Positions 15,256 through 40,243 of a stretch of DNA of 64,000 nucleotides are shown here, in pieces (within the stretch, counting starts at the first letter, position 1; the number at the start of each line of letters is the position of its first letter). The notes under the pieces were generated by a model. That model made no database searches. It worked only from the letters and a program-made list of their open reading frames with translations, and was not told where the DNA came from. The translations under genes were made by a program, and so were the position numbers. Location: the sequence record PZ026127.1. One strand, written 5' to 3'. The stretch comes from a phage.

Positions 15256-16998
15256 TTAGCCAATGTCAATCCTCGAACCATCAATAGTATATTGACCAGA
15301 TGCAATAGAACTCATTGAAGCCATAGTCTCGGACCACGCACCTGCACAAGTCCAAGAAACGGTACCGTTTACTGTCCAATTTAAATTACCATTGGTCGTA
15401 CGAGTTTCATTACCTTCAACTAAGGTAGTTGCATCACCCTTAACAGTAACATCAGCATTTCCTTCAACAATAACAGTAACATTTCCTTTAACAAGCAGAG
15501 TTCCGTCACCTTCTACAGTTTTGGTTTCATTACCGCGAATATGGATGGTTTCGTTTCCATCAGTCTGACGACGCACGTTTGCCATATTATAATAGGTTTC
15601 ATCGCCACCAACGTTGACTTTATTATTACCACCAACATAAGTATTTGAATCGCCTTGGGTCATATAATAACCATCGGCTACCGTCTTAGAAGTTTTACGT
15701 CCATCAGGAGCAACTTCTTCATAACTACCGGTAGGATGGATTAAACGATATCGTTCTTGCCCTGGGGTGTTATCAAATTCTTGGATATGCCCACCTTCAG
15801 TTTGCATGGTTTGGACATATGGATATTCGCCTTTATAACTAGAATCAGGTTCTTTAAAAAGAATCCTTGTGTCTTCTGGAGTCCACGGGTCGGCAGGGTC
15901 CGAATTTGTAGGGGCCGCAAAGGTTTGAATCATTCTATACGAACGACCATTAAATGACCTTTCTTTAGGGGCCATAATACCATATGATTCCATGTTACCT
16001 GTGAGGATAATCATTGACACCCTTGATGCACGGCCTTTAGTTTGGTTAAACCATACTGAATTACGAGCTTCCTCAAATGCCTTTTTATAATCGCCTATTA
16101 GCATTGCACTAAGCATTCCACGGAATTTAGCCAAGCCGCCCAATCCCATTTGGAAAGCCATGTTTTCAAGAGCCATTTGTCTCGAACGGTTTTCTTTATT
16201 ATAAACAGGACCTACAACACTATGCCTGCCTATATCGTTTTGGACTTTTTTAAGGTCGTCTTGGAATAATTTAGAAACCTCGTCCATTGATATTGCACCA
16301 GGGTTACCTTTAACTTCTCGTCCTACCTGATTAGATAATATTTTGTTTATTTGATTCATATCTCTAATAGGTTGTGGTGTAATAAGGTGACCTATACCGA
16401 TAGTAGGGTATCCTTCGGTGTCCCAATATACCTTCAGTCGAAGCCCTTCATCACGGTGAAGCATGTTTTCTATTGTGAAATTAGGATTATCATCAGGCTT
16501 AACCTGGCTCAAATCTAAACCATCAGGATTAATACCTACATCGGTGTTTGCATCTTGTATTACGTTGGAAGTGGCATCATATCCAACTTCACCACCCCGG
16601 TTTAGTGCAGCGGCATCGTTACCTAAATAAAGTGGATATTGACCTGTCGGGTCACTAAAACCTTCATTAGGATTAGCCTTTTGTCTTGAAGCGGAACCGT
16701 ATGTACCAAGGACAAGTCCGTTTAATTTCCACTTATCAAGAAAGTGCCCGTAAACCTGTGTACCGGGGACCATACCAGTCATAGCGGTTTGGATACCTGA
16801 AACAGAGGCAGAAGATGTAGGCATTAATACCGACATCCATGGTAAATCTTCTGTACGAAGGCCTTTTACAGGGCCTTGTACTTTTTCATATGGATGCATA
16901 CCCCATACGCGCACGCGTACTCGGCCTTGTTGGAGTGGGTCCATTCGGTCTTCAACTACACCGACGAACCAACTTACATTATCAGACATGTTAATCAT
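15256..16998 (-). CDS. 5: baseplate central spike / tail lysozyme gp5
   Basis: 580 aa (T4 gp5 575); N-terminal OB-fold region, internal T4-lysozyme-like domain (...HRDEGLRLKVYWDTEGYPTIGIGHL...), Gly/Val-rich C-terminal beta-helix repeats. Confidence 0.9.
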   Translation of the reverse strand: MINMSDNVSWFVGVVEDRMDPLQQGRVRVRVWGMHPYEKVQGPVKGLRTEDLPWMSVLMPTSSASVSGIQTAMTGMVPGTQVYGHFLDKWKLNGLVLGTYGSASRQKANPNEGFSDPTGQYPLYLGNDAAALNRGGEVGYDATSNVIQDANTDVGINPDGLDLSQVKPDDNPNFTIENMLHRDEGLRLKVYWDTEGYPTIGIGHLITPQPIRDMNQINKILSNQVGREVKGNPGAISMDEVSKLFQDDLKKVQNDIGRHSVVGPVYNKENRSRQMALENMAFQMGLGGLAKFRGMLSAMLIGDYKKAFEEARNSVWFNQTKGRASRVSMIILTGNMESYGIMAPKERSFNGRSYRMIQTFAAPTNSDPADPWTPEDTRILFKEPDSSYKGEYPYVQTMQTEGGHIQEFDNTPGQERYRLIHPTGSYEEVAPDGRKTSKTVADGYYMTQGDSNTYVGGNNKVNVGGDETYYNMANVRRQTDGNETIHIRGNETKTVEGDGTLLVKGNVTVIVEGNADVTVKGDATTLVEGNETRTTNGNLNWTVNGTVSWTCAGAWSETMASMSSIASGQYTIDGSRIDIG

Positions 16999-32293: not shown

Positions 32294-32782
32294 ATGGATA
32301 TTTTTGATATGTTACGTCAAGACGAAGGTCTTGATTTAAATCTTTATAAAGACACTGAAGGTTATTGGACTATTGGTATTGGCCAATTGATTACTAAGAA
32401 CCCATCTAAAGACGTTGCTCGCGCTGAACTTGATAAGCTTATGGGTCGAGTTTGTAATGGTCGTATTACTATGGCTGAAGCCGAACAACTCTTTAACCGG
32501 TCGGTTGAAAATGCTCGTAGAGCTATTCTGCGTAATCCTAAATTGAAACCTGTTTATGATGTATTGGACGAAGTTCGTCGTTGTGCTTTAATTAACATGG
32601 TCTTCCAAATGGGTGAAGCAGGTGTAGCAGGGTTCACTAACTCTTTACGTATGCTCCAACAGAAACGTTGGGACGATGCGGCAGTTAACCTGGCTCAATC
32701 CCGTTGGTATAAACAAACTCCAAATCGTGCTAAGCGCGTGATTTCAACATTTAAAACCGGCACATGGGCTGCTTATAGATAA
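32294..32782 (+). CDS. e: endolysin (T4 lysozyme e)
   Basis: 162 aa; [26 protein letters not shown]...[31 protein letters not shown] matches T4 lysozyme; catalytic E11, D20, T26 present. Confidence 0.95.
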
Positions 32783-36293: not shown

Positions 36294-36344
36294 GTTTACA
36301 TCTCCTGTAGACGTGGTACTATAGACCTATCAACTACAGGAGAT
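36294..36344 (+). promoter_or_regulatory. early promoter cassette with SD-complementary spacer
   Basis: GTTTAC 36294, -10 TACTAT 36317; ATCTCCTGTAG (36300-36310) complementary to CTACAGGAGAT (36334-36344) containing the regB SD. Confidence 0.7.
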
Positions 36345-36350
36345 TACAAA

Positions 36351-36809
36351 ATGTCAGAAATTAATTCAGAAGTATTCATCCGCCGCAATAAATTACGTCG
36401 TCAGTTCGAAACCGAATTCCGTGAACTGAATACGTCCATCAAAAAAGCCGCCATCAAGAGCGGAGTCCCAGCCTTCTTTATTAAGTACTCTAATCACTTG
36501 TTGGACCGTGCTATCCAACGTGAAATCGACGAAAAATACGTTTTTGCTTTATTCAAGCAACTCCATAACCATGTTAAAGAAATTCATGAATTTTTAATCC
36601 AGGAACCTCTACCTGATGTAGAATCCGAAATTGTCCCTGGTAAAGTGTATCGTCCATTGCGTCTCGAAATTACCGATAAAACCTTATGGCTAGGTATGAC
36701 AGTAGACCGTAAACATCCTGATAAAGGATATTCCCTTAAATGTCGTATGGCATTTGTTAACTCTAAACGTTTAGAAGGTAAAACCAGCACGAAAGTAATC
36801 TATCTTTAA
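36351..36809 (+). CDS. regB: endoribonuclease RegB
   Basis: 152 aa; ...EVFIRRNKLRR.FE.EFR.....I..........YS.HLLDRAIQREIDE.YVF.LF... matches recalled T4 RegB (153 aa). Confidence 0.9.
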   Translation: MSEINSEVFIRRNKLRRQFETEFRELNTSIKKAAIKSGVPAFFIKYSNHLLDRAIQREIDEKYVFALFKQLHNHVKEIHEFLIQEPLPDVESEIVPGKVYRPLRLEITDKTLWLGMTVDRKHPDKGYSLKCRMAFVNSKRLEGKTSTKVIYL

Positions 36810-36821
36810 TAATGAGGTCTC

Positions 36822-37361
36822 ATGAAAAAAGTATTAGCCACTTTACTATTGACAGTTAGTATGTCTGCCCATAGCGTAGAGCCTACTTTCAGTAATGAAC
36901 AACTCGATAATTTACATTATGCGTATGCTTTCGGTGAACAATACCAAAAGTCGGGAAAGTTCAAAGAAACCCCTAATCAAAAAGGATTAGGATATATCAT
37001 GGCCGGATTACTATGGCAGGAATCATCTGCCGGAATTAATCAGGGTTTAAATAAAGATAAGCACCATGCTTATGGCATGTTCCAAAATTACTTGCCTACG
37101 TTAAGAAGTCGTGTTCAACAGGTAGGTTGGAAGATGTCTGACAAAGAAATAATTCGTATGGTCCAAAAACGACAGAACAGTGCCTCTTGGGCCTACATTG
37201 AACTGTCTTATTGGATTGATGTTCACAAAGGTGACCTGAGAAAAGCGATTGCTTCTTATAATGCGGGCTGGAACGCCAAAGCAGGCAGTAAATATGCTTC
37301 TGAAGTTCTAGAAAAGGCCAATTACCTAAAATCTAAAAAGATGTTTGAGGCGGTGTATTAA
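36822..37361 (+). CDS. secreted lytic transglycosylase-like (SLT domain) protein
   Basis: 179 aa; N-terminal signal peptide MKKVLATLLLTVSMSAHS; family-1 LT motifs WQESS and SYNAGW. Confidence 0.6.
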   Translation: MKKVLATLLLTVSMSAHSVEPTFSNEQLDNLHYAYAFGEQYQKSGKFKETPNQKGLGYIMAGLLWQESSAGINQGLNKDKHHAYGMFQNYLPTLRSRVQQVGWKMSDKEIIRMVQKRQNSASWAYIELSYWIDVHKGDLRKAIASYNAGWNAKAGSKYASEVLEKANYLKSKKMFEAVY

Positions 37362-37718
37362 ATGATTAAGCAGATGACTATAGCGCTTATGTTGATTGCT
37401 CCGGGAGTATTAGCGTCACAAGTTTATGATAGTAATAATTCAATTGTCGAGTATGCTACCCGTACAGCAAAAGATTATTGTCATCCGAGTAATACTGAAT
37501 GCATTATCGAATTCAGTTCAAAAATCACAGCTGCTTTTAAAGATGGCCAGAACGACGTAGAGCATCGCCGAATGAAAGAGAAAACTCTTTCTAAAAGATA
37601 CGAGCAACGTCTAAACGTTACTGAATGTATTCCATCTGATAAAAAGTACAAAGAAATGTGCGCGTCTATGGTAGACAGACTCGTTGACTCATACAACCGA
37701 GGATTAAACTCTAAATGA
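37362..37718 (+). CDS. secreted/periplasmic hypothetical protein
   Basis: 118 aa; signal-peptide-like MIKQMTIALMLIAPGVLAS; 4 Cys. Confidence 0.55.
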   Translation: MIKQMTIALMLIAPGVLASQVYDSNNSIVEYATRTAKDYCHPSNTECIIEFSSKITAAFKDGQNDVEHRRMKEKTLSKRYEQRLNVTECIPSDKKYKEMCASMVDRLVDSYNRGLNSK

Positions 37719-38182
37719 TTATTGATTATATTAAGGGCGATATCGTCGCCCTGTTTCTTCAAGGTAATAATGTTGCACACGGGTGCAACTGTTTCCACAC
37801 AATGGGTTCAGGTGTAGCTGGGCAATTGGCTAAGGCTTATCCGCCTATTCTCGCTATTGATAAAACAACTTGTTTAGGTGATTTGGCAAAACTTGGTACG
37901 TTTACTCAAGCTACAGGTAATAAGGGTCAAATTTGCTATAATTTATACACCCAATACGAACCGGGCCCTAATCTTGATTACGGTGCTTTAGTAAACTGTA
38001 TGATAGAATTAAACCGTACCGCAAAGGGTCTTTTGTTTAAACCAAGAATTTATATCCCTCGCATCGGTTGTGGTATTGCTGGTGGTGATTGGGACAAGGT
38101 TTATCAATTGATTAATTTGTTTACTCCTGATATTAATTTAGTGGTGGTAGATTATGAAAGCCCATTACCCACATCCGTTTGA
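37715..38182 (+). CDS. macro-domain protein (ADP-ribose binding/hydrolase-like)
   Basis: 155 aa; motifs NNVAHGCNCFHTMGSGVAGQL (N..G.GVA..L) and IPRIGCGIAGGDWD (G.GI.GG) typical of macro domains. Confidence 0.65.
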   Translation: MIIDYIKGDIVALFLQGNNVAHGCNCFHTMGSGVAGQLAKAYPPILAIDKTTCLGDLAKLGTFTQATGNKGQICYNLYTQYEPGPNLDYGALVNCMIELNRTAKGLLFKPRIYIPRIGCGIAGGDWDKVYQLINLFTPDINLVVVDYESPLPTSV

Positions 38183-38557: not shown

Positions 38558-39130
38558 ATGGCCCAACTTTATTTTCACTACGCAGCAATGAATTCCGGGA
38601 AGACCGCTTCATTGCTAACAGCCGCTCATAACTACAAAGAACGTGGTATGGGCGTACTCCTTTTAAAGCCTGCGATAGACAATAGAGAATCAAGCCATAG
38701 CATTTCGTCTCGTATAGGGATTAGCCAAGAGGCTAATGCAGTGACTCCGGATATGGACCTATACGAGTTCTATCGTTGGGCTGAATCTCAAAAAGATATC
38801 CACTGTGTGTTTGTGGATGAAGCGCAGTTCTTAGAACCTGTACAGATAAAACAACTGGCAAAGATAGTAGACAATTATAATGTTCCAGTTATGTGCTATG
38901 GACTAAGAACTGATTTTCAGGGTAAACTGTTTCCTGGCTCTGCTGAATTACTCGCTACAGCAGATAAACTCGTTGAGTACAAAGGTGTGTGCCATTGTGG
39001 CCGTAAAGCTACTATGACTGCTAGGGTCCAGGATGGTATCGCAATTAAGGACGGCGCCCAAGTTTCTATAGGTGGCAACGATTCTTACGTGTCATTGTGC
39101 AGGAAGCACTGGATAGAAATAACGAGTTGA
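38558..39130 (+). CDS. tk: thymidine kinase
   Basis: 190 aa; P-loop AAMNSGKTASLL, ...CVFVDEAQFL...VPVM.YGLRTDF.GKLF.GS.ELLA.ADKL.E.K.VCHCG.KA.MTAR... matches recalled T4 Tk. Confidence 0.9.
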   Translation: MAQLYFHYAAMNSGKTASLLTAAHNYKERGMGVLLLKPAIDNRESSHSISSRIGISQEANAVTPDMDLYEFYRWAESQKDIHCVFVDEAQFLEPVQIKQLAKIVDNYNVPVMCYGLRTDFQGKLFPGSAELLATADKLVEYKGVCHCGRKATMTARVQDGIAIKDGAQVSIGGNDSYVSLCRKHWIEITS

Positions 39131-39508: not shown

Positions 39509-39802
39509 ATGGATATTTTCCGTACAGCGGCTTGTATCCTTATGGCGGGATGTTTAAGCCCTACAGTTTCACTAGCAAATGGTGCCAATGATAAATTGAT
39601 GGATGCATTTGCTAGTAGTGCGATGCCTGTTTATGCGCAAATGAGTAGACCCAGCGTAAAGGCCTCCGAAGACTATTGGGCCTATGTTACGGCTTCCTGG
39701 AAGATTTCAAGTTGTCGGACTATAGAAGCGTGCTCAATTGAAGGTCGGGCCATCGGAGAGCGTTATGTAAAACTAATGAAGGTGGAAGATGAAGTTCAAT
39801 GA
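39509..39802 (+). CDS. putative lipoprotein
   Basis: 97 aa; signal peptide with lipobox-like ILMAGC. Confidence 0.5.
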   Translation: MDIFRTAACILMAGCLSPTVSLANGANDKLMDAFASSAMPVYAQMSRPSVKASEDYWAYVTASWKISSCRTIEACSIEGRAIGERYVKLMKVEDEVQ

Positions 39803-40172: not shown

Positions 40173-40175
40173 TCA

Positions 40176-40204
40176 AAGGTCTCACTTCGGTGGGACCTTT
40201 TTTC
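40176..40204 (+). terminator. intrinsic terminator
   Basis: GGUCUCAC-UUCG-GUGGGACC (8-bp stem, one G-U) followed by U6. Confidence 0.8.
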
Positions 40205-40212
40205 GTTTAGGT

Positions 40213-40243
40213 GTTTACATCCTCTAGGAACATGATACTATAG
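40213..40243 (+). promoter_or_regulatory. T4-type early promoter cassette
   Basis: GTTTAC 40213, -10 TACTAT 40236, TGATACTATAGACCTATCAA core; 9 nt after terminator (PeSL-like). Confidence 0.7.

Follow-up and report, generated by a model that had tools for sequence, protein, structure and literature searches.

The vs.1 and vs genes of a T4-like phage: a predicted exported SLT-like muramidase and a tightly linked protein with a predicted export signal

Vs.1, Vs and related cell-wall enzymes

The product of vs.1 belongs to the conserved 'ORFans' of T4-like phages. Its similarity to the SLT domain was published in 2006 (Nolan et al., PMC1524935) and was seen in six of six T4-like genomes; the same paper cites earlier PSI-BLAST results on T4 vs.1 and suggests 'some role in cell lysis' for the vs.1 product. 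The neighbouring gene, vs, owes its label to classical work in which its product was described as a binder of the cytoplasmic valyl-tRNA synthetase (ValRS) (Müller & Marchin 1975, 1977, as cited in PMC8076793). The supplement of PMC9697503 places the T4 regB, vs.1, and vs RNAs in the early class and the T4 Vs.1 and Vs proteins in the 'middle' class, and it records the detection of both proteins in infected cells by mass spectrometry. Our literature search on the function of vs.1 and Vs yielded just the Pfam note of 2006, one expression trial that had failed, and tables of omics data, with no experimental or biochemical work on Vs.1 in the literature searched. UniRef and recent GenBank records label Vs.1 as 'transglycosylase SLT domain-containing protein'. 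Since the SLT match was published in 2006 and is present in the annotation, the core claim of a secreted SLT-like protein was already known.

The closest described enzymes are the family-1 lytic transglycosylases (E. coli Slt70 and MltC/D/E/F), which share with Vs.1 the helical fold, the Glu-Ser, GxxQ, and YNAG motifs, and a Tyr. Vs.1 differs from them in being a single domain with no superhelical, LysM, or lipoprotein module, and the sequence similarity is marginal. It has been known that motifs I-IV define the family-1 lytic transglycosylases in the Blackburn & Clarke classification. Lytic transglycosylases act non-hydrolytically and give 1,6-anhydroMurNAc, whereas the goose-type lysozymes (GH23) are hydrolases. 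The specialised transglycosylases of secretion systems (EtgA, IpgF, IagB, VirB1, and P19) also resemble Vs.1, but Vs.1 is found without an associated secretion machine. In addition, pairs of a muramidase and a periplasmic inhibitor, such as T4 gp5-Spackle, Tse3-Tsi3, and g-lysozyme-PliG, offer a comparison, although Vs has no detectable fold match to any of these inhibitors.

The vs.1-vs locus and its transcription

The window is the whole stretch of phage DNA that was analysed, 64,000 nucleotides of record PZ026127.1, and its relevant features are listed in Table 1. The phage is T4-like: the 2-kb region of the locus is 98.6% identical to Shigella phage PSD9, and its identity to the Escherichia phages QL01, WG01, Bp7, IME08, and JS10 is 95-98%. 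The genes are named regB, vs.1, vs, tk.4, and tk.3 in those records. The T4 gene order, tk … tk.4, vs, vs.1, regB, is the order found in the window. T4 Vs.1 (UniProt P13311, Y06E_BPT4; phrog_600) is a full-length orthologue that lies between regB and vs and carries the same motifs; its identity to Vs.1 of the window is only ~67%, in keeping with the distance of the Bp7/JS10/QL01 lineage from T4. T4 Vs (UniProt P13310; phrog_1256; PF26829) is 46% identical to its counterpart in the window and shares with it the signal peptide, four Cys residues, and the C-terminal SMVDRLVDSYNRGL. The assignment of the two ORFs as orthologues of vs.1 and vs, two long-known genes of T4, is practically certain. 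Chance ORFs are ruled out by the 2076 phage records in which tblastn detected relatives of Vs.1, and by the detection of the T4 proteins by mass spectrometry.

An earlier note, made from the DNA letters, had described this pair as a secreted SLT-like lytic transglycosylase and a second signal-peptide protein, and had placed gp5 and lysozyme e in the same window as the two muralytic activities already expected there. Both ORFs (179 and 118 aa, + strand) lie exactly at the positions given in that note, both muralytic genes are in the window, and the predicted exported SLT-like (GH23) protein is indeed encoded by an ORF distinct from gp5 and lysozyme e. The vs.1 and vs ORFs share one frame, and the TAA of vs.1 is directly followed by the ATG of vs.

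Table 1. Features of the vs.1-vs locus and related genes (positions in the window unless a surveyed locus, L, is named)
Feature	Position	Strand	Basis or remark
gp5	15256-16998	-	in window
Lysozyme e	32294-32782	+	in window
Early-type sigma-70 promoter-like site (TTTACA, 16 nt, TACTAT with TG)	36295..36322	+	consensus match only; upstream of regB
regB, endoribonuclease	36351..36809	+	Pfam REGB_T4 E 6.1e-69; gene upstream of vs.1
vs.1 orthologue, 179-aa precursor	36822..37361	+	phrog_600 E 3.2e-67, residues 1-177
Vs.1 predicted signal peptide, aa 1-18, MKKVLATLLLTVSMSAHS/VEP	36822..36875	+	rule-based
Motif I WQESS, aa 65-69	37014..37028	+	W65, E67, S69 invariant
Predicted catalytic Glu67	37020-37022	+	aligned to Glu of 'rES' motif of g-type lysozyme 3mgw
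Motif II GMFQN (G-L-M-Q equivalent)	37074..37088	+	G85, Q88, N89 invariant
Motif III SYNAGW, aa 145-150 (A-Y-N-x-G equivalent)	37254..37271	+	Y146, N147, A148, G149 invariant
Motif IV tyrosine Y158	37293..37295	+	invariant
vs orthologue, 118-aa precursor	37362..37718	+	phrog_1256 'valyl tRNA synthetase modifier' E 3.8e-34; PF26829 precomputed
Vs predicted signal peptide, aa 1-18, MIKQMTIALMLIAPGVLA/SQV, cleavage after residue 18 or 19	37362..37415	+	rule-based
Vs first Cys pair, C40 + C47 (CX6C)	37479..37502	+	helix 1/helix 2 turn; invariant
Vs second Cys pair, C89 + C100 (CX10C)	37626..37661	+	helix 3/helix 4 turn
tk.4, macro-domain protein	37715..38182	+	Pfam Macro E 4.9e-8; start overlaps vs stop (ATGA)
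tk, thymidine kinase	38558-39130		family scan
rI, antiholin RI	39509-39802	+	in window; 2 kb from vs.1
Predicted Vs lipoprotein clade	L032 3549-3875; L033 2495-2821; L036 3549-3875; L053 3549-3875		
T4 (NC_000866) mobD.4 and rI.-1 entries	L001 2353-2535 and 2820-3206		

The promoter-like site upstream of regB is likely to be the start of a regB-vs.1-vs-tk.4 transcript, as judged from its consensus match. The only terminator-like match on the + strand from regB to tk is a hairpin at 37734-37752, inside the tk.4 coding sequence, and no MotA-type middle promoter box was found before vs.1. Together with the early class of the T4 vs.1 and vs RNAs, the early-type promoter upstream of regB agrees with the expression from the early region that the earlier note had proposed. 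We also inspected the ribosome-binding regions for GGAG, the RegB target. It is present in the Shine-Dalgarno region of regB itself (36325-36352) and absent before vs.1 (36796-36823), vs (37336-37363), and tk.4 (37689-37716), which fits the later accumulation of their proteins compared with RegB in T4 proteomics. Further downstream, a strong terminator-like hairpin with an 11-bp stem and a T run (40175-40200) lies directly before another promoter-like site of the early type (40214-40241; TTTACA, 16 nt, TACTAT with TG), and the two elements probably mark a transcription-unit boundary downstream of rI.

Vs.1 as a predicted muramidase

Several lines of evidence bear on the enzyme family of Vs.1. 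First, when we aligned 39 family members ranging from 97% down to 42% identity to the query, the core residues of the WQESS and SYNAGW motifs, both of which had been pointed out in the earlier note, were invariant, as were those of motifs II and IV. The Glu with which Glu67 is aligned, in a profile alignment that is itself weak (E 0.4), is the catalytic residue of g-type lysozymes. Second, Pfam SLT (PF01464) matched Vs.1 of the window alone with an E-value of 0.0078 and 16.2 bits, which is under the gathering score of 21.3; among the 39 family members, 35 matched at E<0.01, the best at 1.3e-7, and precomputed PF01464 matches exist for several relatives. Third, the AlphaFold (AF2) model of Vs.1 (pLDDT 85.6, pTM 0.80) has a lysozyme-like helical fold, and MltD, goose lysozyme, and Slt came out on top when the model was searched with Foldseek, at an E-value of only ~0.03. 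Finally, the Vs.1 profile gave a weak match to g-type lysozyme in the PDB (E 0.4), mixed with spurious metacaspase matches, while a direct sequence search of the PDB gave no match and an NCBIfam search nothing useful. The mature protein is predicted to have ~161 aa, a mass of 18.5 kDa, and a pI of 9.4. We suggest from the motifs and the model that Vs.1 is an exported single-domain GH23/SLT-like muramidase; catalytic activity is likely, and we infer both the activity and the nature of its product.

Remote relatives of Vs.1 were found in Kuttervirus (Ackermannviridae), Mooglevirus (Ounavirinae), Vibrio phages, and jumbo Aeromonas phages, and the Mooglevirus and Kuttervirus homologues that we examined have a signal-type N-terminus and several cysteines. 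When Vs.1 was compared by tblastn with 72,556 plasmids, no relative was found at E<0.01, and there is consequently no link of Vs.1 to the transglycosylases of conjugative plasmids. This result bears on the idea that Vs.1, like EtgA, IpgF, VirB1, and P19, might be a specialised transglycosylase opening local gaps in the sacculus for a trans-envelope assembly such as the spanin complex. The idea is drawn purely by analogy, and no partner machine was identified; we consider it very unlikely.

The annotation of these genes varies considerably among records. In records of Kuttervirus, kaaroe, and Morganella phages, homologues of Vs.1 go under the names 'endoribonuclease / RegB' or 'site-specific RNA endonuclease', and the homologue of Klebsiella phage Roth19 is labelled 'C-type lysozyme/alpha-lactalbumin family protein'. 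Such drift is seen, among others, in Salmonella phage LPST94 (L005 1971-2588) and at L003 2001-2546. Vs is often labelled 'valyl-tRNA synthetase' in place of 'modifier'. In the T4 RefSeq record, the 60-aa mobD.4 is named 'molybdopterin-guanine dinucleotide biosynthesis protein MobD', which looks like a name collision, and rI.-1 is named 'starvation-inducible transcriptional regulator'.

Export signals, gene coupling and possible roles

Signal peptides were called with a rule-based script, the Sec/signal-peptidase-I type being marked by a basic n-region, a hydrophobic core of 8-13 residues, a small-x-small site, and no lipobox. In Vs.1 of the window these parts are MKK, VLATLLLTV, and AHS/V, and in Vs they are MIK, MTIALMLIA, and VLA/S. 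The same features, with the small-x-small site near residues 16-32, were found in 39 of 39 Vs.1 proteins and 28 of 28 Vs proteins, indicating that the signal-peptide architecture is kept in both families although its residues diverge. The earlier reading of a signal peptide on both ORFs thus extends, by rule-based features, to every member of both families. T4 Vs.1 has the same signal type as Vs.1 of the window, with predicted cleavage at MRKALLAGLLAISMMAHS/SEH, and the N-terminus of T4 Vs reads MTKILVLCIGLISFSASASA/DTSY; the predicted mature N-termini are SEHTFSNVQLDNMR for T4 Vs.1 and DTSYTEIR for T4 Vs. In the AF2 models, the signal region of Vs.1 forms an N-terminal helix of low confidence that is not part of the domain, and residues 1-22 of Vs are unstructured with a pLDDT below 50. 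We conclude that Vs.1 and Vs are very probably both exported, as predicted from these N-termini. A SAR endolysin was considered and rejected: such an enzyme would have an uncleaved, weakly hydrophobic transmembrane domain of ~20 residues rich in Gly/Ala/Ser at its N-terminus, whereas here a hydrophobic core of just ~9-12 residues precedes a site of the cleavage type, and the core of Vs.1 is too short for a SAR-type anchor.

When Vs was traced with an iterative HMM, all 65 Vs-family ORFs carried an export-type N-terminus, and in one clade a lipobox (LSGC; MKKLFVLLVVVALSGC/K, …ALSGC) replaces the signal-peptidase-I site. Judging from this motif, Vs of that clade would be a membrane-tethered periplasmic lipoprotein. 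Other proteins with export-type N-termini are encoded just downstream of vs.1/vs, namely a 130-aa signal-peptide protein in Roth19 (L003 2863-3255) and a 146-aa putative lipoprotein at the corresponding locus of Aeromonas phage 31 (L002 2856-3296), which suggests that the locus collects periplasmic proteins.

The predicted mature Vs of the window has ~100 aa and a mass of 11.6 kDa, and that of T4 has 95 aa and 11.0 kDa (T4 locus L001 5387-5734, - strand). The AF2 model of Vs of the window (pLDDT 76.8) consists of four helices (24-39, 45-68, 73-89, and 94-115). Intact Vs copies contain four cysteines past the signal region, arranged in two pairs (CX5-10C and CX8-10C), and the second pair is present in every listed Vs-family ORF except truncated or split ones. 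Beyond the cysteines, little is kept in the diverse alignment except two glycines and one nearly invariant leucine. Since the cysteines sit at the turns of the modelled helices, two hairpin-closing disulfides would be the expected pattern. PF26829 is precomputed on all Vs relatives. The PDB sequence search with Vs returned noise only, the fold search gave only generic helical matches, and the model showed no detectable fold match to the known inhibitors Ivy, MliC/PliC, PliG, Spackle, and Tsi3. The family is confined to T4-like phages (46 matches with the diverse profile), and when we searched 1.84 billion representatives with the Vs profile, eight matches were obtained, none of which was a fusion protein. 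One large protein, P0147 (3,694 aa), contains 17 stretches that match the Vs profile (E 5e-10), but this match looks spurious. The matches fall in the N-terminal half of the Vs profile (positions 15-54 in the best stretch), and the repeat contains a Cys-x-Cys region; repetition, not homology, probably accounts for the high score.

In order to describe the coupling of the two genes, we surveyed 70 Vs.1 loci from IMG/VR together with four annotated loci and grouped the Vs.1 proteins at 80% identity into 30 clusters. A Vs-family ORF was present in 65 of the 74 loci, corresponding to 24 of the 30 clusters. In 23 of these 24 clusters, vs starts between -8 and +7 nt from the vs.1 stop codon, and in the remaining one the Vs-family ORF lies 0.5-1.2 kb downstream of vs.1. 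The two genes overlap by 8 nt in T4, whereas they abut in the window. By tblastn, Vs was found in 802 records compared with 2076 for Vs.1; since the iterative HMM finds Vs at the loci, this rarity is mostly an artefact of sensitivity. Six clusters (the Aeromonas phage 31 type, Mooglevirus, Kuttervirus, and jumbo phages) have no detectable Vs, indicating that Vs is not an obligate partner of Vs.1. At individual loci, vs encodes just 85 aa, without the first Cys pair (L007 3541-3798), or is split into two ORFs of 65 and 61 aa (L038 3549-3746 and 3691-3876), and Vs therefore appears dispensable in some lineages. The gene coupling leads us to suggest, tentatively, a functional partnership in which Vs.1 and Vs might interact.

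These features of Vs have to be weighed against its label, which implies a cytoplasmic target, whereas the sequence features of Vs predict export. If Vs is the cytoplasmic ValRS binder of the annotation, its hydrophobic N-terminus would not function in export, and the position of vs next to vs.1 would just reflect an inherited gene order; the occurrence of Vs.1 without Vs in some phages agrees with this. However, the signal peptide is kept in all members despite sequence drift and has become a lipoprotein type in one clade, the four invariant Cys residues lie at the turns of helix hairpins, and, according to PMC8076793, Vs with an N-terminal His tag was not soluble in the cytoplasm of E. coli. 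Furthermore, the literature searched, in which the classical work figures through its citation in PMC8076793, gave no account of how the vs mutation had been linked to the ORF. A cytoplasmic location is not what the family as a whole predicts, given the export signal throughout, the lipobox clade, and the four conserved Cys residues. The conserved signal peptide, the lipoprotein variant, and the paired cysteines are hard to reconcile with binding of cytoplasmic ValRS, and we regard the annotated role as unlikely.

The purified ValRS-modifying factor was reportedly ~10 kDa, a size compatible with processed T4 Vs (11.0 kDa), and its difference from the 13-kDa precursor does not exceed the error of the methods used then. 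The insolubility of His-tagged Vs is, as a weak hint, what an unprocessed secretory protein might show. It seems most likely from its sequence that Vs is a helical protein of the periplasm with disulfide bonds, produced along with Vs.1. We propose, as a tentative reading, that Vs is not, or not only, a cytoplasmic ValRS modifier and that it is instead the periplasmic, disulfide-bonded partner of Vs.1 in a conserved, translationally coupled envelope module of T4-like phages. The 50-year-old ValRS label would then either belong to another ORF or reflect a side binding. One may speculate that Vs controls Vs.1 or shields it from inhibitors, for example PliG, in the host periplasm.

Taken as a whole, an exported early Vs.1 muramidase with a co-exported Vs partner is the explanation that we favour with moderate confidence. 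In the proposed scheme, regB, vs.1, and vs would be co-transcribed early, and translation of vs.1 and vs would be coupled via the TAA-ATG junction. Vs.1 would be synthesised with a Sec signal peptide that can be cleaved off, and would enter the periplasm as a soluble and basic GH23 enzyme with a single domain. It would be of the family-1 lytic-transglycosylase type and use Glu67 as its catalytic acid. It would cleave MurNAc-GlcNAc bonds of the sacculus from early to mid infection, well before holin-triggered lysis, and would serve as a non-essential accessory function, not as an endolysin. Vs would be exported with Vs.1 as a four-helix protein of ~11 kDa with two hairpin-closing disulfides and would most probably act with it in the periplasm, as a regulator, an inhibitor, or a targeting partner. 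Our confidence in any specific physiological role, be it pre-lysis remodelling of the sacculus, superinfection control, or help in lysis, is low.

Here, we need to consider two other roles. Vs.1 might be an accessory lysis enzyme that aids lysozyme e at the end of infection, with Vs being unrelated to it. Such a role was proposed in PMC1524935 and would suit a predicted GH23 muramidase; moreover, the homologue of Mooglevirus Sf13 lies beside rIIA/rIIB and near the spanins, and vs.1 of the window is 2 kb from the antiholin gene rI. However, Vs.1 is early and, by prediction, Sec-exported, and would be at the wall long before the holin fires, and the tight coupling of vs.1 to an exported partner is left unexplained. 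Since lysis fails in T4 e-minus mutants, Vs.1 cannot stand in for the endolysin, which also counts against this role. We judge it improbable. Regarding the beginning of infection, the earlier note had suggested that vs.1 acts in infection or superinfection control at the envelope, which is plausible. Vs.1 and Vs might form an envelope module for superinfection control or for resistance to lysis from without, beside Imm and Spackle, the latter being an early periplasmic inhibitor of the gp5 lysozyme (PMC7677548). Both proteins are early and predicted to be periplasmic, like Spackle, and Vs is a small helical protein with an export signal and a size near that of Spackle; nevertheless, we hold this specific form of the proposal to be quite unlikely.

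Returning to the favoured explanation, an exported muramidase with a co-exported partner, what is new here is the presence of predicted export signals across the Vs family and the tight coupling of vs to vs.1, which argue for a periplasmic role at odds with the standing annotation. No other predicted wall-cutting enzyme is sent by T4 to the periplasm via the Sec system of the host ahead of lysis. Should Vs.1 and Vs act jointly in the periplasm, the textbook T4 label vs would need re-examination, and T4 would gain a third, pre-lytic action on the sacculus.
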